In this document: positions 1,230-44,100 of the stretch, piece after piece | Layout of the letters: every line of letters starts with the position of its first letter | Numbering within the stretch: position 1 is the first letter of the stretch | NCBI GenBank assembly: GCA_025999215.1 | Contig: AP024679.1 | Location: 433,082 to 497,081, forward strand | DNA from: Candidatus Dojkabacteria bacterium | GTDB lineage: Bacteria > Patescibacteriota > Dojkabacteria > J137 | Direction: 5' to 3' | Length of the DNA stretch: 64,000 nt | Made by a program: the position numbers and the translations under genes | The notes under the pieces: generated by a model | The model's input: the letters and a program-made list of their open reading frames with translations, nothing else | Database searches by the model: none | What the model was told of the DNA's origin: nothing

Positions 1230-1574
1230 TTATTTGGTAACTTCTTTCACAATCTGATCAAAAGTCTCAGGTCTGGAAACTGCCAATTCAGAAAGAACTT
1301 TTCTATCAAGCGCAATATTTTTAGCTTTAAGATTTGCTACAAAATCTTTGTATGCAACACCACGCTGCGAAAGTGCACTTGAAATTGTTTTAATCCATTC
1401 TGATCGAAGTTGTGATTTCCTTCTTCTTCTGTGCGCAAAACTATACTGTCCAGCATGAAGCGTAGCCTCTATTGCTCTTCTGTAAAGTTTACTGTAGGTT
1501 AGTCTATAACCTTTCACTCTTTTTAAAACCTTTTTATGGCTTTTTCTTTTGGAGTGACCTCTTTTAATTCTCAT
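1230..1574 (-). CDS. rplT: 50S ribosomal protein L20
   Basis: 114 aa. MRIKRGHSKRKSHKKVLKRVKGYR is the conserved L20 N-terminus. It is the last gene of the thrS-infC-rpmI-rplT order. Confidence 0.95.
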   Translation of the reverse strand: MRIKRGHSKRKSHKKVLKRVKGYRLTYSKLYRRAIEATLHAGQYSFAHRRRRKSQLRSEWIKTISSALSQRGVAYKDFVANLKAKNIALDRKVLSELAVSRPETFDQIVKEVTK

Positions 1575-1599: not shown

Positions 1600-1833
1600 T
1601 TAATTTTTCTTTTTAATTCCTAATAATTCTTTCACTCTTTTTTGTTCTGGTTTTGATAATTCTAATTTATCCTTATCAACTCTTCTTTTTGAACTTCTTT
1701 TATTCTTTTTGTGGGCATTATTTTTTAATCTTTGAACTACCCTTGTTACTACTCCAGAACCAGTAACTTTAAATCTTTTGGCTGTAGATTTATGCACTTT
1801 CTTTTTAATTTTAGTTTTTTTAGCTTTACTCAT
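1600..1833 (-). CDS. rpmI: 50S ribosomal protein L35
   Basis: 77 aa, lysine-rich, with KSTAKRFKVTGSG. Overlaps the infC stop by 4 nt. Confidence 0.9.
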   Translation of the reverse strand: MSKAKKTKIKKKVHKSTAKRFKVTGSGVVTRVVQRLKNNAHKKNKRSSKRRVDKDKLELSKPEQKRVKELLGIKKKN

Positions 1834-2390
1834 GATTTTTTCTTAACATTAATTACTAAATTATATCCTTCTTTTCGCACTTCCGATATTTCTTCAACCT
1901 TATCTTTCATCATTTCTCTAAGTCTTTCCATTGTAGCATACATTTGCTCTCTTGGCACTCTTCTAGTAGATTTAATTGTTAATTTAGCTGTATTACCTTT
2001 TGATACAAATTCAATAACCCTTTTTAGTTTGTTTTCCATGTCGTTATCTGCAATGTTAGGTTTGAACCACCACTCTTTATTTTTGACTTGGTGACCTTTA
2101 GCATTTTTAGCTTTTTTGGTTTGCTCGTACTTAAATTTTGACCAGTCTATGATTTTAGCTACAGGCGGATCAATATCTGGCGATACAAGAACCAAGTCTA
2201 AACCAACCTCTCTTGCTTTTGCTAAAGCTTCTGCTTTTGAAAGTACACCTAGATTTTCACCATTTTGATCTATTACTCTCATTTTCTCGGCACGAATATG
2301 ATTATTTCTATCGTACCATTTTATTTGAATAGATTTTTTCTTTGGCGATTTTCTAACTCTCCTGATCTTTTTACACTTAAAAATTAACAA
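1830..2390 (-). CDS. infC: Translation initiation factor IF-3
   Basis: IRAEKMRVIDQNGENLGVL and GLDLVLVSPDIDPPVAKIIDWSKFKYE match IF-3. The ORF-track start is TTG; the true start is often non-AUG in infC and is uncertain here. Confidence 0.9.
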   Translation of the reverse strand: MLIFKCKKIRRVRKSPKKKSIQIKWYDRNNHIRAEKMRVIDQNGENLGVLSKAEALAKAREVGLDLVLVSPDIDPPVAKIIDWSKFKYEQTKKAKNAKGHQVKNKEWWFKPNIADNDMENKLKRVIEFVSKGNTAKLTIKSTRRVPREQMYATMERLREMMKDKVEEISEVRKEGYNLVINVKKKS

Positions 2391-2429: not shown

Positions 2430-3980
2430 TTACCCTATTTTTAGGTTTTCACTCAAAAAAGATGTTAAGTTTTCATAATCCATTAATCCAACCTCCCTAC
2501 CTTCAAACCTCACAGAAACTGAATTGTTTGTAACCTCTTTGTTACCAATCACAAGTATGACAGGAATTTTTCTTTCTTCAGCATTTCTGATTTTATTTTG
2601 TATACTTTTAGATCTTAAATCTACTTCCACATTATATCCTTGTTTTGCAATTTTTTTACTAAAATTGCTGGCGAATTCATTTTGTTTAGATTTTATTGGT
2701 ATACAAATAATATGAGTTTCTTTAATTGTAGTTGGTAAATTTCCATTGTTTTCTTCGAGTAAGTAAGCAATGATTCTTAGAGGTACCACTTCAATCTCAG
2801 TTACAAAAAGATTTTTATTTTCATTTTTCTCATCTACATAAGTAGGTGTATTTTGTGTGAAAGTTCTTAAGGATGCCAGTTGCCACTTTCTATCAAAAGA
2901 ATCTAGCACAAAAAATACAGTTTCCACGACACCATTAGTTTTGGTAAGCACTTGGTTGTGAGACACAACATTACTTTTCAAAACACTAGAAATGACTTTA
3001 ACTTTACCATCATCTAAATTATCACTTAAAATGTCGGCAGACACATCAATTAGAAGTTTTTTCCTGAATATATCAACAATTTCTTCTATTTGAATTCCCA
3101 ATTCACTCATTCCTTCCGTATCGGTGAACATCGAAATAATTGTTTGTACTAAAGTTTCAATTTTTTCTTTTTTAATTTCAAAAAAATTGGTTGAGTCGTA
3201 ATTAAAAATTAAAGGAAATTCTTTGTAACCATGATTTTTAGATTTGTAATTTTCGAATAGAATTTTTCTAAATTCGTAATTATTTTTTCCTTGAGGAAAG
3301 AGTGTTTGGTTTAAAATGTTATCTTTCAAGCTTCTCAAAAATAATTTTTTGAGACTCTTTATTGAATTTGCACCAAGAGGTGAAAAGTATATTGAGTTTT
3401 CGTATTCAAAAAATAAATTAGATGATAAGCCTATTGTTTTGTAGTTTTTGTTTTTGACAATTTCTAGCTTTTTTTTATAATCTTGTGCCTCATTAAGATT
3501 TCGAAATACCATTCCATAGACTCTTTGCAATTCTGGTCTGTTAGGATCATCTCTCCAAAAAGATTGCTCTACTTTGTTTACTACAATTATCCCAATTTCT
3601 TCAGTTGATGATACATGCGGTCCTCTGCACAAATCTGTAAATTCTTCTCCTAGTTTGTAAAAGCTTACTTCAGGCTCATCAATTTGTTTAACTAATTCTG
3701 CTTTGTAAATCTGGCCGTTTTGAAGTAAAAAATTCAAAGCGCTATCTTTATCGAGTGTTATTTGTGTAAATTTATGATTTTCTTTAATTATTTCGTTAGC
3801 AACTGCTTCAATATTTTTTAAATCTTCTTCTGTAATTTTTTTATCAATATCGATATCGTAATAAAATCCTTCACTGGTTACTGGTCCTATTCCAAATTTT
3901 ACTTCAGGAAAAACTCTTTTTATTGCTGCCGCCATAACGTGAGCCGCAGAGTGTTTGACTGTATCAGAAATTTTGGTCAT
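2430..3980 (-). CDS. thrS: Threonyl-tRNA synthetase homolog without a TGS domain; editing and anticodon-binding signatures present, class II catalytic motifs not recognisable
   Basis: HSAAHVMAAAIKRVFP, GIGPVTSEGFYYDID and DLCRGPHV match the ThrRS editing domain. The C-terminal IPVILVIGNKEVTNNSVSVR matches the anticodon-binding fold. It sits upstream of infC-rpmI-rplT. The core region could not be aligned to motif 2/3 or the Zn ligands (see findings). Confidence 0.75.
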   Translation of the reverse strand: MTKISDTVKHSAAHVMAAAIKRVFPEVKFGIGPVTSEGFYYDIDIDKKITEEDLKNIEAVANEIIKENHKFTQITLDKDSALNFLLQNGQIYKAELVKQIDEPEVSFYKLGEEFTDLCRGPHVSSTEEIGIIVVNKVEQSFWRDDPNRPELQRVYGMVFRNLNEAQDYKKKLEIVKNKNYKTIGLSSNLFFEYENSIYFSPLGANSIKSLKKLFLRSLKDNILNQTLFPQGKNNYEFRKILFENYKSKNHGYKEFPLIFNYDSTNFFEIKKEKIETLVQTIISMFTDTEGMSELGIQIEEIVDIFRKKLLIDVSADILSDNLDDGKVKVISSVLKSNVVSHNQVLTKTNGVVETVFFVLDSFDRKWQLASLRTFTQNTPTYVDEKNENKNLFVTEIEVVPLRIIAYLLEENNGNLPTTIKETHIICIPIKSKQNEFASNFSKKIAKQGYNVEVDLRSKSIQNKIRNAEERKIPVILVIGNKEVTNNSVSVRFEGREVGLMDYENLTSFLSENLKIG

Positions 3981-4022: not shown

Positions 4023-4096
4023 TGAGCACTACAGGATTCGAACCTGTGACCTTTCCCACGTCAAGGGAACGCTCTAACCAGCTGAGCTAAGTGCTC
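4023..4096 (-). tRNA. tRNA-Val (anticodon GAC), no encoded CCA
   Basis: The reverse complement reads GAGCACT TA GCTCAGCTGGTTAGAGC G TTCCC TTGACGT GGGAA AGGTC ACAGGTTCGAATCCTGT AGTGCTC A. This gives a full cloverleaf with anticodon loop TTGACGT. Confidence 0.9.
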
Positions 4097-4689
4097 TTTT
4101 GCACCTTCTTTTTTTCTATTACGCTGTCGATAATTCCATATTCTACTGCCTGTAGAGCTGTCATGTGATAGTCTCTGTCAATATCTTTTAATACTTTTTC
4201 TTTCTTCTGCCCAGTTGATTCCACTAACATATCTACCAATTTATCTTTGAGCCTTAAAATTTCTTTAGCTGTAATTTCAATGTCTGATGCTTGACCTTCA
4301 ACTCCTCCTAGTGGTTGATGAATTAAAATCAAACTGTTTGGCAAAGCAAACCTTTTGCCTTTTGTGCCTTGAGACAAAATCATAGCTCCCATTGAAGCAG
4401 CTTTACCTACCGCAATGGTAACAATATCAGGTTTTATATAATTCATTGTGTCAATTATTGAAAGACCGTCATATACAGAACCTCCAGGACTATTGATGTA
4501 CATGGTTATATCTTTTTTAGGATCTTCTTTTTCTAAAAAGAGAAGTTGAGCAATCACTGCATTTGCAACCCCCTCATCAATCGCCGTGCCCAAAAAAATT
4601 ATTCTATCTTTGAGTAGTCTAGAATAAAGATCATAAGCTCTTTCTCCATCTCTGGTTCTTTCAATTACGTTTGGTATTAAATATGCCAT
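4087..4689 (-). CDS. clpP: ATP-dependent Clp protease proteolytic subunit
   Basis: [34 protein letters not shown] and [11 protein letters not shown] (catalytic Ser context) are typical ClpP. The last codons and the TAG stop lie inside the tRNA-Val gene. Confidence 0.95.
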
Positions 4690-4764
4690 TTATTTTTTTT
4701 AATAACTACTTAATCATTATAGTAGTAATTATTTTAATTTTCAACAGAACCGATTAGCTTATCA

Positions 4765-4806
4765 GGTAAAAAACAAAAATCCCCGTTGGGATTTTTGTTT
4801 TTTACC
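4765..4806 (-). terminator. Long perfect hairpin between the DUF192 gene and the clpP promoter region
   Basis: ggtaaaaaacaaaaatccc (4765-4783) and gggatttttgttttttacc (4788-4806) form a 19-bp stem with a 4-nt loop. The flanks are A/T-rich on both strands. Confidence 0.5.
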
Positions 4807-4926
4807 TCGTTTGTTGGAATATTATACACATTTTCAAATTTGTTTGTCAAAGGGGTTTATACAAAGTGTTTTAATTTCTTTATGTTAAAGCTTAAAAGCA
4901 CTTGAAATTTTGTATACAATTTTTAA

Positions 4927-5463
4927 TCACCATATAAATCTATCACCTATTTTAATTCCATTCTTTTCTGTCCAAAAAGCATTTACTTCAAGTGTGTATT
5001 TTGCCGGTTTTTCTGATGAGTAAATTTCTGTAGTTTGGTTTGGCATGGTGTTAGTGTGAATTTTAACAACTTTTTTATCTGCATCTAAAAATATAATATC
5101 TAGTGGAATATAAGTATTTTTCATCCAAAAGTTTAGAGTTTGTTCTTTTTCAAACACAAAAAGCATGCCAGCATCTTCAGGTAGATAATCTCTAAACATC
5201 AAACCTCGCTGCCTTTCTGTGTTATCATCAGCTATTTCTACAAAAATTTTTTTACCGTTCGGTGCGATTATTTCAATATTTTCTGAAGGTATTGCGTTTA
5301 ATTGAATGTCTTGATTTGCTTCGTTGTTATTTAAAAAGTTTTCACCTACACCTAACGCGATTAAAACAGCAAAAAAAACAGAAATTACTGTAGCAATAGC
5401 GCTAATTAAAAGTATAATCGGAGATTTGAGGTTTTGTAAAATTTTGTTTTTAATATTATTCAT
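4927..5463 (-). CDS. DUF192-family protein with N-terminal membrane anchor
   Basis: RQRGLMFRDYLPEDAGMLFVF...FWMKNTYIPLDIIFLD is the DUF192 signature. The start overlaps the mutL stop by 1 nt (TAATG). Confidence 0.8.
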   Translation of the reverse strand: MNNIKNKILQNLKSPIILLISAIATVISVFFAVLIALGVGENFLNNNEANQDIQLNAIPSENIEIIAPNGKKIFVEIADDNTERQRGLMFRDYLPEDAGMLFVFEKEQTLNFWMKNTYIPLDIIFLDADKKVVKIHTNTMPNQTTEIYSSEKPAKYTLEVNAFWTEKNGIKIGDRFIW

Positions 5464-7301
5464 TAAATTATTCGTTTAAAAAATTTATCTATATCTTCTT
5501 TCGTTAGTTTGTAGTAAGTTGGTCGTCCATGTGGGCAATTTTTGGGGTATTTAAGGCTAAACAAATCGTTAATGAGCTTATTCATTTCGTCTATAGATAA
5601 TTTTTGTCCAGCTCTAATTGATCCGTGGCATGCTGTTTTTGCCCAAACTACATACTGTTCTTGTGTTAATTTTACACTAGTTTCAAACTCGTAACTACTA
5701 AATTTTGAATCAAGATCATCTGATTCTTCGTTTATTATCTCATCAAAGAATTCGTTTAAATTTATATTTTCTAAGTCTTCAGGGATTTCCATAATTTGTA
5801 AGGATTTTTGTCCAAATCTTTCAAATTTAAATCCTATCTGAATTAAATCATTTTCAATCTTTTTAATATTATCTTTACCGCTAGTAGTTAACTCGACAAT
5901 TGCGGGAATTAATAGAGGTTTTGATTTAGGTTTTTGAATTTTTCGTAGCAATTTTTCAAAAATGATTTTTTCGTGAGCTGCATGCTGATCAACTATAATT
6001 AAGTTTGAATTTTGTTCAAACAGTATGTATGTTCCAAAAATTTGCATAGGGTTTTTGTTCCATGAAAAGGAAATCTCAACTTCATTTTTGCTACTATTAA
6101 TTCCTTCATCTGATAATAATTGCTGAGTAAATTCAAGTGCTTTTTTGACTTCATAATTTTTGTTTCTTTGGCTTCCGATATTAAATTTAATTTTATTACT
6201 CTGCTCTGTTTTTTGTAAGGGTAAGTAATGCCTTGGTGGATTAGTAGTTTTTAAATCTGGTTCATTTGAAAAGTTATTTTCTTCTCCTAAAAAATCTTTG
6301 AGTAATTCTTGCTTGGACTCTTTCTCAAGTGTTTTTTTGACGCTCAGAAAAACAGACTTGAAAATGGAACCTGGATCATCAAAACGAACTTCAAGCTTTC
6401 GTGGGTGCACATTAACATCAACTTGATTTGAATCAAGTGTTAAAAACAAAATATATTGTGGCTTTAAATCTTTATGCAAGAAACCTGAGTATGCTTTTTG
6501 GATTGCTGATGAAATAGTTTTGTTAGTTACAAATCTTTTGTTGATAAAAATATATTGAACTGGATTTGTTTTTTTTCCAAGTTTTGAATTACCCAAAAAA
6601 CCATTTAATTTGATTGAATTACTGTGAGCAGTTAAGTTATATGAGTTTTCTAAAAATTCTCTACCTAAAATATCTTTTATTCTGTTCTCAATTGAAGTTT
6701 TTTCTAGATTATAAAGTTGTTTATTATTGTGGTAAAGCTCAAAATGTATTTCAGGATTTGCAAGAGATGCATGAATGAAAACTTGGATAATGTGTCTAAG
6801 TTCAGTTTGATTAGATTTTAGAAATTTTTTTCTTGCAGGAACTGTAGCAAATAAATTAAAAACTTGAATTCTTGTGCCGTTATTGTAACCTTCTGGAGAA
6901 GCTTCTGAGATGGTTGTTGGGGTTACCACCACCGCTTTTGGGTTACTATCGGGTGTTTTAGATTGTAAAATAATCTTTTCAGCAACTGAACGAATGCTAG
7001 CCATTGCTTCACCTCTAAAACCAAATGAATTAATTTTAAGTAGGTCAGAAGATTTTTTAATTTTAGAAGTTGCGTGTTGTTCAAACACTAAATCAATATC
7101 ATCACTCTCTATTCCTATTCCATCATCAATAATTTCAATCAAATCTAGCCCATAGTTTTCAATATAAACTTTAATATGAGTTGCATTGGCATCAATGCTA
7201 TTTTCTAAAATTTCCTTAACTACGGACGCTGGTCTTTCAACAACTTCACCGGCAGCAATAAGGTTTATTACATGTGGAGGTAGTTTGTTAATTTTTCCCA
7301 T
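5463..7301 (-). CDS. mutL: DNA mismatch repair protein MutL (endonuclease-type)
   Basis: N-terminal GHKL ATPase (LIAAGEVVERPASVVKEILENSIDA). The C-terminal domain carries DQHAAHEKIIFE (DQHAxxExxxxE) and CPHGRP motifs. Confidence 0.95.
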   Translation of the reverse strand: MGKINKLPPHVINLIAAGEVVERPASVVKEILENSIDANATHIKVYIENYGLDLIEIIDDGIGIESDDIDLVFEQHATSKIKKSSDLLKINSFGFRGEAMASIRSVAEKIILQSKTPDSNPKAVVVTPTTISEASPEGYNNGTRIQVFNLFATVPARKKFLKSNQTELRHIIQVFIHASLANPEIHFELYHNNKQLYNLEKTSIENRIKDILGREFLENSYNLTAHSNSIKLNGFLGNSKLGKKTNPVQYIFINKRFVTNKTISSAIQKAYSGFLHKDLKPQYILFLTLDSNQVDVNVHPRKLEVRFDDPGSIFKSVFLSVKKTLEKESKQELLKDFLGEENNFSNEPDLKTTNPPRHYLPLQKTEQSNKIKFNIGSQRNKNYEVKKALEFTQQLLSDEGINSSKNEVEISFSWNKNPMQIFGTYILFEQNSNLIIVDQHAAHEKIIFEKLLRKIQKPKSKPLLIPAIVELTTSGKDNIKKIENDLIQIGFKFERFGQKSLQIMEIPEDLENINLNEFFDEIINEESDDLDSKFSSYEFETSVKLTQEQYVVWAKTACHGSIRAGQKLSIDEMNKLINDLFSLKYPKNCPHGRPTYYKLTKEDIDKFFKRII

Positions 7302-7328
7302 AAAAATTTAAAACTTTTACAAATCTCT

Positions 7329-8417
7329 TTATTTAAATTCGCCAAGTAAAAATATTTCTAATTTAAGATTTAATCCTAACTTTTCTAATGCTCTTTTTTT
7401 TATCTCTTCTATCACTGCTAAGTATTCTTGCGCTGTAGCTTTACCTTTGTTTTCAATAAAATTATGGTGTTTTTCTGATATCCAAGCATCACCAATGTGG
7501 AACCCTTTCATATTTAAAACATGTTCTACCACATACCCAACACTTACCGTAGGCCAACCTCTTTTCTCTTTTTCTTTTACGCTTATATTTTGAAAAACAC
7601 AACCTATTGAATTACTTGGTTGATGCAACGCTTTTCTCTTGGTCCACTCTTGAGCTACGTAAATGGCTCTTTTTTTATCACCTTTTCTTAAATTAAAAGT
7701 AGCATCTAAAATTATTTCTTTTGTATCATGAAAAATTGAATAATCATATTTTGCCTTAAGTTCATTTTGTTTATATATCTTAATTTGATTTTTTGAATCC
7801 AGCACCTTTACTTCATCAATTATCTCATGAATAAAATGAGTACCACCATGAATGTTATTAAAAATTGCACCACCGATAGTTCCAGGAATTCTTCCATACC
7901 ATTGTAAACCAGTTAATCCTTGATATACTAAATGATTGATCGCAAATGGTAAATCTACACCACTTTCCATAACTACTTTTACTATAGGTCTGTCATTTTC
8001 ATCGTAATCTAAATCTTGAAATTCATACATTTTCCTTGCGCCCTCTTTTTCTGTTGCGCTATTCCATCTAATTTCAGATTTATATGATTTTTCCCATTGG
8101 TTTATTAAATTTTCATTGTTTTCACTTTTTTCAACTATTTCTTTTTGACCTATAGTAATTTTTTTAGCTTGATTTCGTATAACTAACCCTCTGATTCCTA
8201 AATCACCCACCAAAACATTTGAACCCCAACCAAGCATTGTGATTGGTACGTTTTCTTTTCGAGCGTGAATTATTGCATCTATTAATTCTTCATTAGTTCG
8301 TGGTTCGTAAAAAATATCCGCAGGTCCACCAATTCTTAAAGTTGTATGTTTACTCAATGGTTCATTAAGCTTTATAAATTTTGGGTTTAATTTTGAAATT
8401 AGTTTCTGATATTTCAT
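7329..8417 (-). CDS. murB: UDP-N-acetylenolpyruvoylglucosamine reductase
   Basis: LSKHTTLRIGGPADIFYEP, GWGSNVLV and the GCVFQN-type C-terminal region match MurB. There is an acidic insertion of about 60 aa in the middle. Confidence 0.9.
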   Translation of the reverse strand: MKYQKLISKLNPKFIKLNEPLSKHTTLRIGGPADIFYEPRTNEELIDAIIHARKENVPITMLGWGSNVLVGDLGIRGLVIRNQAKKITIGQKEIVEKSENNENLINQWEKSYKSEIRWNSATEKEGARKMYEFQDLDYDENDRPIVKVVMESGVDLPFAINHLVYQGLTGLQWYGRIPGTIGGAIFNNIHGGTHFIHEIIDEVKVLDSKNQIKIYKQNELKAKYDYSIFHDTKEIILDATFNLRKGDKKRAIYVAQEWTKRKALHQPSNSIGCVFQNISVKEKEKRGWPTVSVGYVVEHVLNMKGFHIGDAWISEKHHNFIENKGKATAQEYLAVIEEIKKRALEKLGLNLKLEIFLLGEFK

Positions 8418-10088: not shown

Positions 10089-12113
10089 TTAATCAGGAAC
10101 TTTTTGTAGTAAAAATTCTCTACAGTAAATCCTGGGTGGTTTAGACCAATCTATTTCACCATCAGGTTTGCGCTCATGTAAAATAAAACATCCATATCCA
10201 TATTGCCTTAACCCTATTCTACTGATCACGATCACATTATTTTTTAATTTTAATAGTTCTTTAACATATTTGTGATGCTTACGGGTTGCGTACATATTTT
10301 CATATATTCCATACTTTATACCAAAGTTACATGTGTACACACTAACATGTTTGCCATCCTCACATGCTTTGACATTTAGAATGGGTTCAACTGGTACATA
10401 CTTGAATCCTGCCCTTTTCCAATTATCTACTGCTTGATATACTCTTAACCAAGAAATAAATTCTTCATTTGATATGACTCTTCTATTACTTTTGTTGTCT
10501 AGCTCTTCAGTAATAATTGGGGGCTTTTTCTCTGCTTTTGATATTTCTTTTATTTCTGATTTTTCAAGGTTTTCTATTAGTTTTAATACATCTTTTTCGA
10601 TTGGTTTTCTATTTTTTTCTGGCAGATACTCAAAATTCCAAGCAAACCCAGGCGCAGCTTCTTTTGGTGCCATATCAATAAGTAGTCTAGCTACCTGTAA
10701 TTGATTCCCTTCATGTAAAGATGGGAGTCTAAAAGCGACCTCGTAAGCGGTTCCTTTTGGGTTTACACCCATAAGTAACTTAATGACTGCTAATTGATTT
10801 TTTTCTGACAAGTCCCGAAGTTGCCAAGCCACATTGCGAAGAAATTCGTCATTAATTGCTTTGGGAGCTTTTTCTATAAGTGAAGTAATAATTTCTATTT
10901 GAGTATCTTCTGGTAAACATGCTAAATGGCCAGCGAGGTTCTCAGCAGACTCTTGAGGTGCTTTTTCAACAAGTAGTTTAGCAATATCTCCCCTAATATC
11001 TTCAGATATATCATCAATTTTGTCAGATAACGGGCCTGCCGTTGGATTTATATATTCATCCTTATGTAACATGTACAAAATTTCATTTTTGATTTCTTGG
11101 GGTAATTCTTCAAATTCGCAAATTTCCCGAGCAAGTTCAGGTGCCGCTTCTTTTGGTGCTATATCGAGCAGTAAATTAAAGATATGTATCATTTGCTTTT
11201 CAGAAATAAACTCGCCGACATAAAAAAGTTTTTTAGCAAGTTCAGGTGCAGCTTCTTTTGGTGCTTTCTCTAGAATTAATTTTAATATTTCCATTTGAGC
11301 TTTTTCTGGTAAATATATGGCCTGATTTGCAAGCCCTGGTGCAGCTTCTTTAGGAGCTTTTTCTATAAGCTTTTTTGCGAAGTCTGCTCTAACTTCTTCT
11401 GGAAGGTCATTAATACCCCAGGCAAGTTTAGGTGCAGCTTCTTTTGGTGCTATATCGAGAAGCTTGTTTGCAAAGTCTACTCTTGTTTCTTTTGGAAGAT
11501 AAGAAACACTCCAGGCAATTTCAGGTACCGCTTTTTTGAGGGCTACATCAAACAGTAAATTAACAATTTGTTTTCTATTTTCGTATGGAAAAGATTCTAT
11601 GGAGCTAGCGATTACTGGAGCCGCTTCTTTGGGGGCATTCTCTAGGAACCAAGGTAATGCTTCTCTTTTAACCTCTGATGGGAGGTACTTAAAATTTTCA
11701 TATTCAGCTATTGCAGAAGTCACTTTTTTTAAATTTTTCTCCTTTATATGTTTTAAGAGCATTTTACAGATTTTTGTAAAAACTGCTGGTTCAAGAAGGC
11801 GATACAAATCTGAAATAAAGTTAGCAAGTTTAACCCCAGCTTCCTCTGGAGCGATATCTAAAATCTCTTGGGTTTTTTCGAAATAATCTCCTTGTTGACT
11901 ACATAGTGATAACATCGCATCAGTTATTTTAAAGTTTATTGGATCATTTTCGATAATGTTCTGGTATTGCCTTTCTAAATTTTCAACTATTTTTTGAAAC
12001 TCATCCTGGGACCATTTAGGTGCACCTGGCAAATGATACATTTCATAGTTTGCTATCATGTTGCGTGCCGTTTCACTTAAACTTGAATTAATTGAGGAAG
12101 TATTTTGTGACAT
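10089..12113 (-). CDS. 674-aa tandem-repeat (alpha-solenoid/HEAT-like) protein with unassigned C-terminal domain
   Basis: About a dozen units of roughly 31-36 aa of the form L(I/L)(E/D)xAPKEAAPxLAxxxxxLPEExxxxxxxxL. The only gene lying between the two direct repeats. Confidence 0.7.
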   Translation of the reverse strand: MSQNTSSINSSLSETARNMIANYEMYHLPGAPKWSQDEFQKIVENLERQYQNIIENDPINFKITDAMLSLCSQQGDYFEKTQEILDIAPEEAGVKLANFISDLYRLLEPAVFTKICKMLLKHIKEKNLKKVTSAIAEYENFKYLPSEVKREALPWFLENAPKEAAPVIASSIESFPYENRKQIVNLLFDVALKKAVPEIAWSVSYLPKETRVDFANKLLDIAPKEAAPKLAWGINDLPEEVRADFAKKLIEKAPKEAAPGLANQAIYLPEKAQMEILKLILEKAPKEAAPELAKKLFYVGEFISEKQMIHIFNLLLDIAPKEAAPELAREICEFEELPQEIKNEILYMLHKDEYINPTAGPLSDKIDDISEDIRGDIAKLLVEKAPQESAENLAGHLACLPEDTQIEIITSLIEKAPKAINDEFLRNVAWQLRDLSEKNQLAVIKLLMGVNPKGTAYEVAFRLPSLHEGNQLQVARLLIDMAPKEAAPGFAWNFEYLPEKNRKPIEKDVLKLIENLEKSEIKEISKAEKKPPIITEELDNKSNRRVISNEEFISWLRVYQAVDNWKRAGFKYVPVEPILNVKACEDGKHVSVYTCNFGIKYGIYENMYATRKHHKYVKELLKLKNNVIVISRIGLRQYGYGCFILHERKPDGEIDWSKPPRIYCREFLLQKVPD
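10640..11860 (-). repeat. In-frame coding tandem repeats (about 93-105 bp period) inside the 674-aa gene
   Basis: The recurrent DNA motif ggtgc(a/c)gcttcttttggtgc (reverse complement of APKEAAP codons) occurs near 10655, 11145, 11240, 11335 and 11430, with degenerate copies elsewhere. Confidence 0.8.
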
Positions 12114-16914: not shown

Positions 16915-18834
16915 TCACACCAAGGAAGCTTTGAGTCGCCTCAGGTTTGAGCCTATGTTTTCTTGTTTTAAAATTTTGAACTTTTTATTATTCTCTCCCA
17001 AAACTCCTGTTGTTTCAACATGCGGTCCTCCGCAAAACTCTTTTGAGAAACGCCTCATCTAAACTATTACCTATAAAATAAATGGTTACTTTGTCGGGAT
17101 ATTTTTGTCCAAACTCCATTTCTGCACCAATTTTTTGTGCTTCGCCTGAGAGGCATTTCTACTCTCTTCACTGGTAAATTTTCTGTGATCTTTTGATTGA
17201 CAATATCTTCAATTTTTTTGATTTCCTCTTCTGTAATTTTTTTTGAATAGTTAAAATCTATTCTTAATCTTTCAGAAGTTATGTTGCTACCTCTCTGGTG
17301 AATATTTTCGTCTAACACAAGCTGTAATGCTCTCAAAAGCAAGTGGTGAGCTGTGTGAAGCTTGGTTGTTTCGTGCGAGTGATCTGCCAAGCCTCCAGTA
17401 AATTTTTTTTGAGCGCCGGCACGAGATTGTTCTTTATGTTGTTCTAGCAACGTTTTAAAACCAACTATGTCTACTATAAATCCTATTTCTTTTGATAATT
17501 CTTGTGTCATTTCTACTGGAAATCCATAAGTTTCATAAAGATGGAAAGCTTCTTCACCTTTTAAGAAATTTCTATGAGGATTTTCGGATTTTTTGATATC
17601 AGTAACGATTTTGTAAAATTGCTTAATACCATTGTCTAGAGTTTTTCTAAATTTTATTTCTTCTTTATCTATTTCATCAATTATAAACATCTCCTTTTCT
17701 TTAAGATGAGGATAAGCATCTTTCATTTTTTCAATTACTAGGCTTGCCAAATCCTTGGTGAAATTTTTTTCTATTCCAAGAATTTTTGCATGTCTTATCA
17801 TCCTTCTGATTAAGCGCCTCAAAATATACCCTTGATCTTTGTTAGATGGCGCAATTCCATCGGCAAGAATAAAAGTTGATGCTCTTGCATGATCAGCTAT
17901 AATCCTGAATGCTTTCGTATATTTACTTCTGTTCTTCGTTGTGATCGTATTTGTGGCCTGATATATTTTCTATTGCGTTGATGTAGTCAATAAATAAATC
18001 AGTTTCGTAAACTGAGCGCTTGTTTTGAACTGTAGCGACAATTCTGTCTAGCCCTCCTCCATAATCAATGTTTTTTTGCTCCATAGGCTTCCATTTTCCA
18101 TCCTCAAATCTGTATTCCATAAAGACACTGTTTCCAATTTCTAAGTATCTTCCTGAATCATCATTAATGTGCAGTTTTTCTCCAGTATCATTTAATACTG
18201 TTTGCATATCATAAAAAATTTCTGAGCACGGTCCACCCAATTCTCCATTAACCTCGGGCCCTCTCTGCCACCAATTGTCTTTTTTACCATAAGGAAATAT
18301 TCTAAATTGCCAATTTTGACTTGATTCACCCTGTTGAGGAACATTTGTAATATCTTCACTAAATTTCGCTTCTATTCCATATTTTTTAAATGCCTTTATC
18401 CATGCGTCAATGGCTTCATCATCGCGAGGTATATTATCATCTCCTCCCCAGACGCTAGCAAAAATTCTTTGGGGATCAAGTCCGAACTTTTCTACATAAA
18501 GCTCCATTTTCCAAAGTATTTGTTCAGTTTTTGAAAAAGCGCCCAAAGACCAGTTACCGATCATTTCAAAAAAAGTTAAGTGATTGTAGTCGCCAACATC
18601 TTCAATATCATTTGTTCTTAGACATCTTTGTACATTACACAATCTTTTTCCCAAAGGATGAGGCTGTCCAGCTAGATATGGCACAAGTGGAAACATGCCT
18701 GAATTTACAAAAAGTAAAGTTGGATCATTATTTGGGACAAGGGATACATTCGGGATAATTTTTGCATTTCTTGGAGAACTTGTCCAAAATTTCAAAAATT
18801 CATTTCTTATTTCATCGGATGTTTTCATGAACAA
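16915..18834 (-). pseudogene. alaS: Alanyl-tRNA synthetase with three single-nt frame disruptions
   Basis: N-terminal catalytic part (FLKFWTSSPRNAKIIPNVSLVPNNDPTLLFVNSGM, FFEMIGNWSLG), middle part (AFRIIADHARASTFILADGIAPSNKDQGYILRRLIRR, HTAHHLL) and C-terminal part (GAEMEFGQKYPDKV, FSKEFCGGPHVETTG). The parts lie in successive +1 frames, with breaks near 17925, 17152 and 17050. Confidence 0.85.
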
Positions 18835-22096: not shown

Positions 22097-24664
22097 ATGA
22101 TACTACAAAAAATTTTTTTTACAATGAAATATTTAAAGTTAACAAAAAAAATATTCACTACAGTTTTGGTTTTTGGCATTTTTGGATTGGTTTTGCCTTC
22201 TATTTGGAGTGTAAATGCTATAGTAGATGTGCCTTTAGAGACTTACTCGAATACGCAGACAGAGGTAATTAAACCTACACCATCAATGAATGGTTTGTTT
22301 TGTTTTGTTCCTGCTGAAGTTAATCAAGCACTCTATGGATGTCCTATAGTTACAAGTTGTGGTTTCTTTAGTGATTTAATGTCTGTTGGTGAGACTGTTC
22401 TTTCTGGTACTACCTTTTTTAACACAGCATGTGATGCAACTAATGGAGATTCACAATTTAATCCTAATTCAGGAATTGGTTTAAATCACGTGGCATTAAA
22501 TGGTATTGATACTTTGTTAAACTTAAGACCTGTAAGTGGTGTAGATTATATTAACCAGAATGTTTATGCATTATCAAAGTTGGGTAACGTGAGCGCACAA
22601 GATGGTGGTAGGGTGCTTCCATATTATCCTGGACTTGGTTATCAGTTACAGGCACCAATGCAAGCTTTTTGGGGCTGGTCCGTTAATATAGTTTATGGTT
22701 TTTTGATAGTTTTGATAATTGTTGTAGCACTTGCAATAAGTTTCAGGCAAAGATTAGGCGGTAGCGCTGTTGTTACTTTACAAAATTCTATCCCAAATAT
22801 TGCTCTTGCTATGATTTTAGTACCACTCAGTTTTGCAATTACTGGTTTGTTTATTGATGCTATAACTGTCGGTTCGAATGTTGTTCATGGTTTTCTATTG
22901 GGACCTGGATCACCAGGTAGGGTTGTTATAGAAGGCGATGAAAACGATCGGCCCTTTAGTAGGGATCTATATCCAGATGATCCTGATTTACAGTTGTTAC
23001 AAGGAAGTATTGGAAACCCATTGGAATTATCTATTGAGGGTGGTACGGTTGGAGATGCTGCTTTTGATATTATTATTGGAGATAAAGGCACCACGAGGGA
23101 TGCAATTGATAAAGGTTTGTTAATTTTTTCTCCACTTTTTCCATTTGCAGCTATAACTATACTACTACAAGGTATATCTCAAATTCCAGTTGTTGGTGAA
23201 AGAACTACTTCTAGTATTTCTGAGTTGTTTGGTTTTGGCAGTGAGATTCCGCAGTTTGCAGCTTCGTGGTGGATAGGCCAATTTTTCACTTTATTTATGA
23301 ATATAATATTCTTTTTCACAGGTTTACGAATTTTATGGTTATTATTAAAAAAGTTTTTTGTTTTGATGATATCGCCTGTATTTTCTCCTTTTGTGTTTGC
23401 AACTATAGCAATTCCTGGAGTAGGTATGAAAAATGTTTATTCTTTTTTGAAATCACTAGGTGCTGTTTCAATATTTTATATTGTTGCTTATTCTATGATT
23501 TTGTTGGCAAATATTATTGGTAATATAAAATTTGTACAAAGCATAGAGCAACAATTTCAAGTTTCAGGTTATGTACCTCCATTACTAGGATTTAGTGGCA
23601 AATTTATTGAATTATCGGAAAAAATAATTAGTAGTGAAGGTACTGAAACTGGAGTCAATGCTTTAGTTTACTTGGTTATGTCTAGTGTTGCGGTTGTCAT
23701 CTATTTATCTATTCCAAAAACTCTAAGAGATATTGATAGAAGATTGGGAACAGATAGATCTATGTTAATGCCTATTTTGCAAGATACTATTCAGAGCGCA
23801 AGAGATTCTCTTGGAATTGGTAGAGAGTTAGGGTTATATGGTGCCAACTTAGCTGCGAGCGCCTACAATAGGTTTGCAGGTGTGGAAGCAGGGCAACCTG
23901 GAAGTGCGCAATACAGGTTTAGAAGATTTTTTTCTAACTCTTTGAATAGGTTAGATTCTCAATCAAATGATCCAAATAGGAGTTTTTTGGGTAGAGTTGC
24001 ATCTAGGTATGATAGGTTTGTAACAGGTCAAGTTGCTAGAGCTTTAGGTGTAACACCGCAAGGTTTTGATGAGCAAGGAAGGAGGTTGCCTGCTTCATTT
24101 AAGGTTCAATTTGTTCCAACTAAGTATGTAAATGAGTTTGGAATTATAACTTTTCCAAACTCATTCATTCAAGAAATATGTCAAGCAGCTACAGATGTTG
24201 GATCTAATAAATGGTCAATTGAGGGTTTTGTGATAATGAAGATAACTGCTGAAAATGCTGAGTTACCTTTTACATTTGATACAAATTCTGTTAGTATTCA
24301 AGAAGCAGTTAAAGCACCTGATGGTGCAACAGACATACCATCAGGTAAAACGGATACTCAAAGGTTGTATAAAGAGAAAGTAGATATATTTGGTGTGAGT
24401 AAAGCAACTAAAGGGGCTTTGTCCATTCAGCTGTCACCTAGATCTGCTCCTATGCCAACTGATGGTAAATCTGCAGGTATATTGTTTGATTTGGTTATAA
24501 ACGATGTAAGGAAATTGTTTGGATGGGATGGTCAAAAAATTGTAAAAGGGGACGCTATTATTTCAACTGTTTCCTCTGTCGTTATGTCGGACAAGATTTT
24601 CTTTGTTTTTAGGGATGGTGCTGCAGGACCAGTAAGGTTGCAATTGGGCGCAACACCTGATTAA
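22097..24664 (+). CDS. 855-aa polytopic membrane protein, possible VirB6/TrbL-like channel component (weak)
   Basis: Signal/TM segment, a Cys-containing ectodomain of about 180 aa, at least 6 TM helices, and an Arg-rich soluble C-terminal region of about 300 aa. The start may be the ATG at 22124 (MKYLKL). The VirB6-like idea rests on topology and context only. Confidence 0.55.
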   Translation: MILQKIFFTMKYLKLTKKIFTTVLVFGIFGLVLPSIWSVNAIVDVPLETYSNTQTEVIKPTPSMNGLFCFVPAEVNQALYGCPIVTSCGFFSDLMSVGETVLSGTTFFNTACDATNGDSQFNPNSGIGLNHVALNGIDTLLNLRPVSGVDYINQNVYALSKLGNVSAQDGGRVLPYYPGLGYQLQAPMQAFWGWSVNIVYGFLIVLIIVVALAISFRQRLGGSAVVTLQNSIPNIALAMILVPLSFAITGLFIDAITVGSNVVHGFLLGPGSPGRVVIEGDENDRPFSRDLYPDDPDLQLLQGSIGNPLELSIEGGTVGDAAFDIIIGDKGTTRDAIDKGLLIFSPLFPFAAITILLQGISQIPVVGERTTSSISELFGFGSEIPQFAASWWIGQFFTLFMNIIFFFTGLRILWLLLKKFFVLMISPVFSPFVFATIAIPGVGMKNVYSFLKSLGAVSIFYIVAYSMILLANIIGNIKFVQSIEQQFQVSGYVPPLLGFSGKFIELSEKIISSEGTETGVNALVYLVMSSVAVVIYLSIPKTLRDIDRRLGTDRSMLMPILQDTIQSARDSLGIGRELGLYGANLAASAYNRFAGVEAGQPGSAQYRFRRFFSNSLNRLDSQSNDPNRSFLGRVASRYDRFVTGQVARALGVTPQGFDEQGRRLPASFKVQFVPTKYVNEFGIITFPNSFIQEICQAATDVGSNKWSIEGFVIMKITAENAELPFTFDTNSVSIQEAVKAPDGATDIPSGKTDTQRLYKEKVDIFGVSKATKGALSIQLSPRSAPMPTDGKSAGILFDLVINDVRKLFGWDGQKIVKGDAIISTVSSVVMSDKIFFVFRDGAAGPVRLQLGATPD

Positions 24665-41129: not shown

Positions 41130-44100
41130 TCAAGAACACCCGGTTGTGCTACCACAATCTTCACAAACTGAACAGCTACCGTTTTTTCTAACATTTACAC
41201 TTCCACAGGTTCCACAAATCTCTCCGGTGTATCCTTTACTTTTTGCTTCCTTTAACAAAGTATCTTCATCAAGAGTTCCATCAAAGCTTATTTGTTGTTC
41301 TAGCTTCATTTGTACAGGATCAGTAACGATTGGTTTAAAACTTTGCATATTGTCTTCATCATTTTCGTTATCAAAATTTAAAACTTCAGTATGTCCCTTT
41401 CCATTGATATGTGGAATTCTGATTCTAAAGTTACTTCCTTCTCTATAAGACTTTTCTACTAGCTCTTCGTTGTGATAGTATTTTGCAGTCTCTTTATCCA
41501 AAAACTTTAATGCTAACCATCTTGCTATATAGTCTATTAGTGATTTAGCAATAGGAATTTCTTTATTGCTGGTCATTCCACTTGGTTCAAATTTAGAGTT
41601 TGTAAACTTTTCAACCAAAACTTCTAGAGGAACTCCGTACTGCAAATTTAGTGAAAGTGATGTTGCAAAAGCATCCATTATACCTGATAAGGTGCTTCCA
41701 GCTTTGGAGATTACCAAGAATATTTCTCCTGGTGTACCATCTTCAAAAAGCCCTACAGTGATATAACCTTCAATTGCGCCTACAGTAAATTTATGAGTGA
41801 TGCTGTGTCTTTCATCAGGTAATCTTTTTCGCTTAACTGTGCTCTGCTCTTTCATTACAATGGTTTGTACAGCTTTAGAATCAACGTCTTCTGATACTAC
41901 TTCTTCATCGTTAAAGTTAAATAATTCTGCATAAGAACTTTTATCAGAGCTCGAATTTAGAGGTTGGCTTAATTTTGAACCATCTCTATACAAAGCATTC
42001 GCTTTGAGCATGAGCCTCCAACCTTCCCAGTATGCTTGCTCAACATCTTCAAGTGTTGCATCTTCTGGTAGATTAACGGTCTTACTGATAGCTCCAGATA
42101 TGAATGGTTGCGCTGCAGCCATTTGTTTCAAATGTCCAAGTGTTGCAATATATCTTTCACCTTTTGTTCCACATTTATTTGCGCAATCAAATACCTTTAG
42201 ATGCTCTGGTTTGATGTGAGGAGCTCCTTCGATTGTCATTGTTCCGCACGCGTACTCGCTTGCAGCTGATATCTCTTCATCGCTAAAACCGATGGCTTTG
42301 AGAATATCAAGATTGCTATTATTTAGTTCTTCATCACTTAAGCCTAAAACATCTTTACAGAATTCTTCACCGAGAATCCATTTGTTGAATGCATGCCTTA
42401 TTTCAAAAGCATTTTTGAGCCCTCCTTCTACAGCCATAATCTCTTTATCTGTAAAACCTTTTGACTTTAGAACTTCATGATTTATAAAAGGAGCGTTTTG
42501 AAGTGTAGCATGACCTATTATATATTTGATTATCTCATCAATTTGCTTTTTGCTGTAACCTAATTTTTGTAATGCAGGTTCTACTGATTGATTTACAATC
42601 TTGAAATATCCTCCACCTACTAATTTTTTAAATTTAACCAAAGCGAAATCTGGTTCAATTCCTGTAGTATCGCAATCCATAACCAATCCAATTGTTCCTG
42701 TAGGTGCAATTACAGAAACTTGAGCATTTCTGTATCCGTACTTTTCACCTAAATCAAGAGCAAAATCCCATGCTTTGCGAGCTTCCTCCAAAAGATATTT
42801 GGGAGCAAATTTTGGGTTAATTCCCATTGGTTTTATGGTTAATCCTTCATACTCATTTTCATTAGCGTTGTATGCTGCTCTACGATGATTTCTAATTACT
42901 CTCATCATGTGTTCTTTGTTCGCTTCAAATCTTTCAAAACTTCCTCGTACTTTTGCTAACTCTGCAGAAGTTGCGTATGATTCTCCGGTGAGTATTGCCG
43001 TAAGTGATCCGGTAATTGCAAAACCTTCTTCACTATCGTAAGGAATACCTTGTCTCATTAAAAGTGATCCAATGTTAGCATATCCGAGTCCGAGAGTTCT
43101 GTATTTGTAAGTTAGCTCCGCTATTTCTTTTCCGGGTAAATGTGACATTAAAACTGAAATTTCAAGGACAATTGTCCAAAGTCTTATTGCATGTTTGTAT
43201 GTTTCAACATCAAATTTTCCAGTTTTGTCATCATAAAATTTTACAAGATTAAGTGATGCAAGATTACAAGCAGTATTATCCAAAAACATATATTCTGAAC
43301 ACGGATTGCTCGCATTTATCTTTCCATCAGCGGGGCAGGTATGCCATTCATTGATTGTTGTGTCAAACTGTACCCCAGGATCTGCAGATTGCCATGCAGC
43401 TCTAATAATTTGTTCCCACAGATCTCTTGCTTTAACGGTTTTGTAAACTCCCCCATCTGTCCTATTTCTTAATTTCCACTCTTTGTCTTGTTGAACCGCT
43501 TCAAGGAATTCATTAGTTATTCTTACTGAATTATTAGAATTTTGACCACTTACAGTTGAGTAAGCTTCAGATCTAAAATCTGTATCGTATTTTTCAAGAG
43601 TAAACTCCTCGCTTGAGACTCCATTTTCAACTAGCATCAAAGCTTGTTTTATGAAGTTTAGTGGAACAAAATTATCGTGTGCTTCTTTAATTAATTTTTT
43701 TAATTCTTTATTAGTTTCGGGATTAATTCCTTTTTGTTCAGCTGATTGCATTATTTTCTTAAGATGAAGATAATTTACATGCGATCCACTTACTAGAGCA
43801 GCTACCTTTTGTTCTTCTACTACTTTCCAATTTATAAACTCTTCTATCTCTGGGTGATCCATGTCAACACAAACCATTTTAGCGGCTCTTCGAGTAGTAC
43901 CGCCACTTTTGATTGCTCCTGCTGCTGAGTCAAAAACCTTCAAAAAGCTCATTAGTCCTGATGAAGTTCCTCCACCACTTAACAATTCACCCTTTCCTCT
44001 AATTGGTGAAAAATTAGTTCCTGTACCAGATCCGTATTTAAATAATCTTGCTTCTTTTAACACAAGATCAAAAATTCCACCTTCATTTACTAAATCATCT

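Follow-up and report, generated by a model that had tools for sequence, protein, structure and literature searches.

What becomes of thrS when the protein that it encodes no longer carries the residues needed to charge tRNA(Thr), and what would such a gene be kept for? The question is raised by a gene lying in a 64-kb stretch of DNA (hereafter, the window; GC content of about 31%), part of an 862,240-bp contig from a metagenome-assembled genome of Candidatus Dojkabacteria (Candidate Phyla Radiation, CPR/Patescibacteria). The gene codes for a protein of 516 amino acids (aa), 100% identical to the sequence here called P0001 and named threonine--tRNA ligase at the NCBI. An earlier note on this DNA had recognized a homolog of threonyl-tRNA synthetase (ThrRS) in the operon slot of thrS, upstream of infC-rpmI-rplT, with which the coordinates of the open reading frames (ORFs) agree, and had proposed a pseudo-synthetase rather than the aminoacylating enzyme; the profile, alignment, and family data presented here lend support to this proposal. 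In our reading, to which we assign a probability of roughly 0.62, the gene descends from the native thrS and still occupies the ancestral slot; it would have lost aminoacylation and persisted as a Ser-tRNA(Thr) deacylase specific for tRNA(Thr), a second ThrRS being responsible for charging.

The Pfam search on the 516-aa protein retrieved tRNA_SAD (PF07973; residues 105-155, E 1e-10) and HGTP_anticodon (PF03129; Table 1), and the domain representing the class II core, tRNA-synt_2b (PF00587), gave no match even at E <= 10. This is the outcome of a profile HMM check suggested in the earlier note, and the anticodon-binding domain (ABD) described there at the C-terminus is indeed present. On the curated thrS equivalog TIGR00418 the protein scores 210.1 bits, below the cutoff of 383.65; with respect to membership in TIGR00418/EC 6.1.1.3, it possesses the N2-type editing domain (N2) and the ABD, and lacks the required score, PF00587, the Zn ligands, and the arginines of motifs 2 and 3. 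Likewise, it carries both motifs of free-standing editing factors (HxxxH and CxGxH), the synthetic active site being absent from the polypeptide.

The sequences of ThrRS in the PDB align only to residues 6-195 and 355-511 of the protein, and an HMM built from 58 canonical ThrRS sequences aligns to residues 9-223 (229 bits) and 362-517, placing motif 3 ('ihrailGsleRf') opposite 'IEVVP--LRII'. The profile-profile comparison carried out with hhalign revealed homology with ThrRS over the full length (probability 100%), the middle region corresponding to the class II core; in this alignment both a block of about 28 residues holding KPMNCPxH and the loop of motif 2 are deleted, and the positions of motifs 2 and 3 are devoid of conservation. 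None of the three Zn ligands (C334, H385, and H511 in E. coli, corresponding to C333, H384, and H509 in the P0094 numbering) is kept, and 0-1 of 13 catalytic residues is left. R402 aligns at the motif 3 Arg, a position mostly occupied by E in the family, so that the Arg is not conserved. All the strings quoted in the earlier note (HSAAHVMAAAIK, DLCRGPHV, SFWRDDPNRPELQRVYG, FPLIFNYDSTNFFEIKKEKI, and VTEIEVVPLRIIAYLLEE) occur in the translation, and the Zn-ligand context, motif 2, and motif 3, which it could not find by hand, were recovered neither by profile-profile nor by HMM alignment, either in the protein or in its family. Having lost the Cys/His/His triad, the arginines of motifs 2 and 3, and about 62 residues in length, the core, judged by its residues, cannot bind threonine or ATP as the known class II synthetases do, and on this alignment the loss of aminoacylation is close to certain. 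The absence of the TGS domain, also pointed out previously together with a start about 10 aa before HSAAH, was verified (the protein begins 9 residues before HSAAH), but it is no anomaly: many live CPR ThrRS of 573-598 aa are likewise devoid of TGS (PF02824), so the missing domain is typical of the lineage.

A search for homologs retrieved 62 clusters of 501-556 aa plus one partial sequence of 434 aa, with identities down to about 29%. According to precomputed Pfam annotations, all 62 clusters share the same two domains and lack PF00587, and all the named members of this degenerate family are Candidatus Dojkabacteria. We aligned 61 members with 58 canonical ThrRS and scored the columns that are near-invariant in the latter (residues H73 to R607 follow P0094 and differ by at most one from the E. 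coli numbering). Eight editing residues, i.e., H73, H77, K156, D179, C181, H185, W205, and R216 (H10, H14, K93, D116, C118, H122, W142, and R153 in the 516-aa protein), are kept in 61/61 sequences, which extends to the whole family the claim that the editing signatures are intact. The picture is reversed for charging: the Zn ligand C333 is deleted in 60/61 members, H384 is kept in none of the 61 and H509 in a single one (1/61), the motif 2 R362 in 0/61, and the motif 3 R518 in 6/61; moreover, between residues 160 and 478 the invariant and near-invariant positions of the degenerate family include neither Arg nor His nor Cys. In the ABD, G595 and E598 are present in 61/61 sequences and R607 in 60/61.

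The same polarity emerges from the mean pairwise identities, compared between the degenerate family and live ThrRS: 54.6% vs 54.5% for N2, 22.1% vs 50.9% for the class II core, and 37.1% vs 48.4% for the ABD. The core has about 217 aligned residues vs about 279 in live ThrRS, i.e., it is about 62 residues shorter (the earlier estimate of about 55 was close), and with an entropy of 2.5-3.0 it is the least conserved part of the protein. A conserved N2 next to a diverged core is, on these sequence comparisons, the reverse of the pattern of a working synthetase, and N2, as far as pairwise identity reveals, is constrained as strongly as in working ThrRS. Being common to 61 independently assembled homologs, the degeneration of the core is due neither to chance nor to assembly errors. 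The nearest relatives with available DNA diverge by about 30% at the protein level, and their synonymous sites are expected to be saturated.

The structure predicted by AlphaFold2 (AF2) with the family alignment has a pLDDT of 91.6 and no disordered segment. Foldseek matched the model with full-length E. coli ThrRS (1qf6_A; E 3.5e-43, TM 0.79) and also with structures consisting of the ThrRS catalytic domain only. The structural check proposed in the earlier note thus returned a conserved overall ThrRS architecture: in the predicted structure the N2-core-ABD arrangement is kept and the degenerate core, given its confident fold and its superposition on ThrRS catalytic domains, survives as a structural element. 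The protein hence shares with canonical ThrRS (E. coli 1qf6, S. aureus 1nyq) the full-length homology, the architecture, and the genomic slot; it differs in having neither the Zn triad nor the arginines of motifs 2 and 3, and in a core that is about 62 residues shorter.

The slot itself is conserved over long distances, since members with only 30-40% identity share the order murA…mutL-DUF192-clpP-X-infC-rpmI-rplT, and a PBP gene lies on the opposite strand in the orthologous neighbourhoods. An exhaustive search with the C-terminal 162 residues added longer relatives, which we scored at 13 catalytic, 6 editing, and 3 ABD positions. They form a graded series, from P0188 (593 aa), with 10/13 catalytic residues (C333→N and H509→Y), through P0131 (570 aa, 8/13), P0215 (584 aa, 5/13), P0137 (586 aa, 4/13), P0145 (562 aa, 3/13), and P0135 (554 aa, 1/13), down to the family of about 500-530 aa (501-532 aa, 0-4/13). 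Every protein of the series keeps 6/6 editing residues and the whole ABD triad (3/3), and the TIGR00418 scores drop in step (542, 519, 438, 349, 338, 210, and 189). P0188, P0215, and P0131 have lost two of the three Zn ligands, yet with scores of 542, 519, and 438 bits they pass the cutoff, and all three are named threonine--tRNA ligase. P0215 is an NCBI Candidatus Dojkabacteria protein; P0131 and P0135 occupy the same infC-adjacent slot, and loci of partly decayed orthologs are L089:10001-11755 and L088:10001-11713.

In a neighbour-joining tree built on the N2 and ABD columns only, 85 degenerate proteins fall within one clade of 91 leaves, with the long forms in basal position and the short ones derived. 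The sole live member of this clade in the tree is P0065, which stands for a canonical set of 585-596 aa ThrRS (more than 120 clusters at 75-100% identity among the matches listed); the clusters of this type are named Dojkabacteria or candidate division WS6, and P0065 lies in the slot of its own genome. As this set is live in the slot, the class Dojkabacteria holds both lineages with a live and lineages with a dead slot gene.

If the slot gene is dead, charging should be performed by another enzyme, and two relatives show where it can be encoded. In locus L089 (GCA_014729085.1, Candidatus Dojkabacteria) the gene order is iPGM, EamA, a 612-aa ThrRS, a 148-aa ORF, P0215, and infC-rpmI-rplT-pheS-pheT. 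In two independent assemblies (L098 and L099), mutL-DUF192-clpP is followed by CarboxypepD_reg, a histidine kinase, a response regulator, iPGM, a live 605-aa ThrRS, and, after 10 bp, by the degenerate P0145 and infC-rpmI-rplT-pheS-pheT. The live copies of L089 and L098 possess 6/6 editing, 13/13 catalytic, and 3/3 ABD residues and score 641 and 644 bits on TIGR00418 (live Dojkabacteria copies, 641-664); sharing 29-36% identity with their degenerate neighbours, they are not fresh duplicates of them. The two live genes (L089:7279-9117 and L098:8173-9990) have an orthologous N2 (60-62% identity), which is also orthologous to the N2 of slot-type ThrRS in related lineages. The cores differ: L098 has one of the general CPR type (P0067/P0074, 58-62%), and that of L089, in which KPMNCPAGMMVY and FTQNDAH stand out as unusual motifs, resembles the Dojkabacteria type of P0065 (about 64%). 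A shared N2 joined to different cores suggests, at the sequence level, that domain-level recombination occurred between ThrRS genes.

The live ThrRS block of these basal relatives (L098, L089) occupies the stretch that separates clpP from the degenerate gene, where the window has a lone tRNA gene; the iPGM gene of the window lies 52 kb from the degenerate gene and is followed by a DHH-family gene, not by a ThrRS. By phylogenetic bracketing, we infer that the live ThrRS of the window organism lies elsewhere on the chromosome. The search for a second thrS called for by the earlier note was successful only in part, i.e., a complete copy stands beside degenerate orthologs in related genomes, but none was found within the window.

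Some candidate partners were discarded. An anticodon-domain similarity search yielded live ThrRS lacking N2, but P0165 comes from Candidatus Providencia siddallii, a symbiont of insects, and P0157 is 63% identical to ordinary CPR ThrRS and lies on a contig of 41% GC that shows no connection with Dojkabacteria. The closest canonical matches, P0061 and P0065, are ordinary thrS genes of other lineages rather than second copies. Among the matches listed, which in one listing reached down to 75% identity only and which a partner may have escaped, no live ThrRS cluster has a longest contig equal to that of a family member (862240, 1149470, 202872, and others). A metagenome scan with the live copy of L089 retrieved seven loci, six of them with one live ThrRS-like gene each (in one case a fragment of 160 aa where the contig ends) and the last with no more than a weak partial match; three (L091, L092, and L095) are in the infC slot, and L094 lies outside it, on a contig too short for linking it to a degenerate copy.

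Two kinds of unusual ThrRS came to light besides. In P0157 (L087:5804-7360), a catalytically complete ThrRS without editing domain, the core is preceded by an N-terminal hydrophobic, transmembrane-like helix and a short linker; its gene is embedded between TIM and miaA on a 9.9-kb contig, and the protein could be either the product of a miscalled start or an editing-less, membrane-tethered ThrRS. P0226, P0242, P0191, and P0236 represent the mirror image of the degenerate family, with the full catalytic set and a degenerate N2 that has lost HxxxH and CxGxH; a similar protein, P0186, is from an Arsenophonus insect symbiont.

As for the function, editing is probably the one best supported by the conserved residues. 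The two histidines of HxxxH (H73 and H77) are pivotal for the hydrolysis of Ser-tRNA(Thr) at N2 (PMC3592468), and HxxxH and CxGxH together define this type of site, the Cys of the latter being crucial for proofreading (PMC12003907). A bulky aromatic residue at the position of E. coli ThrRS Y173 marks a ThrRS-type rather than an AlaX-type site (PMC12003907), and 61/61 family members have Y or F there. The closest experimental precedent is Anabaena T1 (PMC4787780): with its three Zn ligands mutated it still deacylates Ser-tRNA(Thr) fully and reduces the amount of this mischarged tRNA that its editing-defective paralog T2 produces, and zinc-free T1 turns into monomers without aminoacylation activity that heterodimerise with T2. 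By analogy with these mutants, and on the basis of residue conservation, a trans-editing function is inferred for the 516-aa protein.

In the simplest history, a second ThrRS would have been inserted just upstream of the native thrS, which then lost catalysis; the region from clpP to the degenerate gene would have contracted, in the derived lineages, to one tRNA gene, with the live copy lying elsewhere. According to this scheme, the ABD may dock the anticodon of tRNA(Thr), the dead core may act as a rigid spacer presenting the acceptor end to the N2 site, and the latter may hydrolyse in trans the Ser-tRNA(Thr) released by the live ThrRS, which in the window organism would be encoded elsewhere on the chromosome. 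The degenerate protein would then correspond to the zinc-free T1 subunit of Anabaena, made permanent by genetic change.

Several observations weigh against this reading. No second ThrRS-like gene was found within the 64-kb window, and the charging partner of this genome was not located. The live partners that can be seen, in L089 and L098, carry the complete editing hexad, so that in those genomes the degenerate copy is not the sole editing site, and its strict retention beside an editing-competent partner is hard to account for. The family also lacks conservation in motif 1 proper (GYxxVxTP), where 8% of the members keep Y289 and 18% keep P295, which makes the formation of dimers or heterodimers uncertain. 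In addition, that the conserved ABD residues read the anticodon is presumed from the E. coli ThrRS-tRNA complex. Since the visible partners keep their own editing sites, the role may be that of a redundant extra sieve, as for AlaX beside AlaRS, or may go beyond simple editing.

The last point leads to the alternatives. The protein might bind tRNA(Thr), or a mimic of it in mRNA, in a mainly non-hydrolytic manner, serving in the translational regulation of the operon, in the sequestration or hand-off of tRNA, or as an inactive heterodimer subunit that modulates the live ThrRS. E. coli ThrRS translationally regulates its own mRNA; here the ABD and the overall ThrRS shape are kept, the gene remains in the operon with infC-rpmI-rplT, and pure editing seems redundant given the full editing site of the visible partners. 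Heterodimers of duplicated ThrRS are documented, too (PMC4787780). We nevertheless consider such a role unlikely, because it leaves the eight editing invariants and the live-level conservation of N2 without an explanation, the Rfam scan disclosed no T-box, leader, or other known RNA element upstream of the gene, and motif 1, whose residues belong to the class II dimer interface, shows no conservation. The persistence beside a partner with an intact editing site would be accounted for if the protein were an editing factor with a changed substrate, e.g., another small amino acid on tRNA(Thr), complementing the cis-editing of the live ThrRS, and three N2 positions that are near-invariant in canonical ThrRS are in fact altered in the family (Y204 to H, F, or Y; G207 to N, D, or E; Y218 variable). 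However, all the residues known to be important for the hydrolysis of Ser-tRNA(Thr) are unchanged, the aromatic residue equivalent to Y173 is kept, and there is no sign of a different pocket, so that we deem this explanation quite improbable.

Even less credit is due, in our opinion, to the idea that the protein is the organism's only ThrRS, still charging tRNA(Thr) by means of a remodelled, zinc-free active site. It would fit the NCBI annotation, the occupied thrS slot, and the lack of a second thrS within the window; on the other hand, a core that is the least conserved part of the protein, without any conserved Arg, His, or Cys and with the motif 2 and Zn loops deleted, is the opposite of an active site, and in relatives whose copy is partly decayed, a complete ThrRS adjoins it. 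Finally, a functionless, decaying pseudogene or an assembly artefact would be in line with alaS, broken by at least two frameshifts in the same window, which points to assembly indel errors or decaying genes in this genome; but the ORF is intact, at 501-532 aa, in at least 61 independent assemblies, N2 and the ABD are under strong purifying selection, and the core keeps a confident fold at 22% identity across a deep radiation, and this explanation can be regarded as effectively refuted already.

Retaining the trans-editing reading, we compared the protein with known systems. In the crenarchaeal split between ThrRS-ed and ThrRS-cat (Korencic et al. 2004; summaries in PMC7373986 and PMC3592468), one ThrRS-derived gene, according to these summaries, serves to charge threonine and another to proofread serine, as would be the case here, and the ABD is kept by the editing protein, in agreement with a match of the NCBIfam model NF011500 ('Ser-tRNA(Thr) hydrolase') at residues 403-493. 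This match covers the ABD only and reaches 38.4 bits vs a cutoff of 362, so the 516-aa protein is not a member of NF011500. From the same summaries, the crenarchaeal editing protein has a DTD-like fold and its catalytic partner has no editing domain, whereas the Dojkabacteria protein has the bacterial N2 (HxxxH/CxGxH) fold and both visible partners have a full editing site.

With its Zn site empty or mutated, Anabaena T1 (PMC4787780; Rubio et al. 2015) is likewise an N2-type ThrRS unable to charge, and its loss of Zn ligands has natural counterparts in the intermediates P0188 and P0131; the deacylation of Ser-tRNA(Thr) in trans would be the feature common to the two systems. The switch of T1 is conditional and reversible (zinc) and affects a complete enzyme, whereas the loss in Dojkabacteria is genetic and permanent, with the ATP motifs gone and the core shortened; moreover, T2 is editing-defective, which the visible Dojkabacteria partners are not obviously. 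AlaX/AlaXp proteins belong to the same editing-domain superfamily and share both motifs, and AlaX coexists with a cis-editing synthetase as a redundant extra sieve (PMC7373986, PMC12003907). They are limited, though, to the editing domain, with at most small additions, and their target is tRNA(Ala), whereas the Dojkabacteria protein retains a whole ThrRS scaffold with the ThrRS ABD; the score on NF040865 (AlaXM; 44.8 bits vs a cutoff of 300, residues 10-139) and the aromatic residue equivalent to Y173, which is small and aliphatic in AlaX, indicate that it is not an AlaX. On the whole, the protein would work most like crenarchaeal ThrRS-ed and zinc-free Anabaena T1, being a member of neither.

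HisZ, a regulatory subunit of ATP phosphoribosyltransferase that resembles HisRS, is a further class IIa homolog without aminoacylation, kept for another role. It lacks an editing domain, acts in amino-acid biosynthesis, and is a paralog at another locus, whereas in Dojkabacteria it is the gene in the original slot that decayed.

A search in the full-text literature (ThrRS with Dojkabacteria, CPR, or Patescibacteria; trans-editing paralogs) found no earlier description, though its coverage was incomplete and an earlier mention is possible. If the trans-editing reading is true, the division of labour between archaeal ThrRS-ed and ThrRS-cat would gain its first N2-type counterpart in bacteria, one whose living intermediates form a rare series at one locus. 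Genomes streamlined to less than 1 Mb would keep a proofreading-only protein of about 500 residues with a fully conserved editing site, which argues that the clearing of Ser-tRNA(Thr) in trans has a real fitness value despite a cis-editing synthetase. Furthermore, since such proteins are automatically annotated as threonine--tRNA ligase and several intermediates without Zn ligands pass the cutoff, estimates of genome completeness and metabolic reconstructions of CPR bacteria may count a non-functional synthetase. As a scaffold that is minimal by nature, the protein might also help to examine how tRNA is placed for editing by a ThrRS body devoid of catalysis.

A wider and more doubtful scenario, which we put forward tentatively, is that Dojkabacteria possess a permanent two-gene threonine system, arisen independently of Crenarchaea and with another editing fold, in which thrS has become a full-length, anticodon-guided deacylase dedicated to Ser-tRNA(Thr) ('ThrX') and an acquired ThrRS performs charging, the charging enzyme of the most derived lineages, that of the window among them, having perhaps a lost or weakened editing activity. 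In this case, a reciprocal split could be traced stepwise through living intermediates, from 10/13 to 0/13 catalytic residues.

The coordinates of the domains, motifs, and neighbouring genes are given in Table 1.

Table 1. Coordinates in the window of the degenerate ThrRS gene, of its domains and motifs, and of the flanking features.
Feature	Position	Strand	Remarks
Degenerate ThrRS homolog gene	2430..3980	(-)	Intact ORF, 516 codons/516 aa, ATG start
N2-type editing domain, residues 1-160	3501..3980	(-)	All canonical editing residues
HxxxH editing motif, H10-S-A-A-H14	3939..3953	(-)	61/61 family members
CxGxH editing motif, C118-R-G-P-H122	3615..3629	(-)	61/61 family members
Shrunken, catalytically degenerate class II core, residues ~191-400	2781..3410	(-)	Without PF00587; homology by hhalign
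Class IIa ABD, residues ~401-516	2433..2780	(-)	PF03129 at residues 426-511, E 6e-16
infC (IF3)	1830..2390	(-)	ORF; same order with IF3_N/IF3_C Pfam matches at orthologous loci
rpmI (L35)	1600..1833	(-)	ORF; Ribosomal_L35p at orthologous loci
rplT (L20)	1230..1574	(-)	ORF; Ribosomal_L20 at orthologous loci
tRNA-Val(GAC)	4023..4096	(-)	ARAGORN and Rfam; sole feature between clpP and the degenerate ThrRS gene
Upstream synteny block (clpP, DUF192, mutL, murB)	4087..8417	(-)	ORFs
clpP	4087..4689	(-)	
DUF192 gene	4927..5463	(-)	
mutL	5463..7301	(-)	
murB	7329..8417	(-)	

The degenerate gene lies 40 bp upstream of infC, followed by rpmI and rplT, and murA is also found upstream, beyond murB. As no minus-strand terminator-like site was detected from the clpP stop to rplT, the genes from clpP through the tRNA-Val gene and the degenerate ThrRS gene to infC-rpmI-rplT may form a single transcription unit; the promoter and terminator scans around the degenerate gene returned nothing informative. 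The tRNA-Val(GAC) gene overlaps the final 10 nt of the clpP ORF as listed.

The alaS gene (17067-18834, minus strand) is broken into at least three reading-frame pieces: positions 1-267 of tRNA-synt_2c are encoded at 17923-18834, positions 301-450 and the start of the editing domain at 17067-17822, and a third frame near the 3' end carries the editing motif '...CGGPHV...'. No long homopolymer occurs at the first shift, and a related genome has an intact AlaRS of 645 aa (L090:1215-3152); the breakage represents either an assembly indel error or a real decay.

Three large ORFs, i.e., 22097-24664 (plus strand, 855 aa), 10089-12113 (minus strand, 674 aa), and 59038-60468 (plus strand, 476 aa), have no Pfam match at E <= 0.001. 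The region 41130-44744 (minus strand) codes for a class II (B12-dependent) ribonucleotide reductase of 1204 aa, with the barrel matched in two stretches and a C-terminal TSCPD domain; this protein is unusually long and may contain an insertion.

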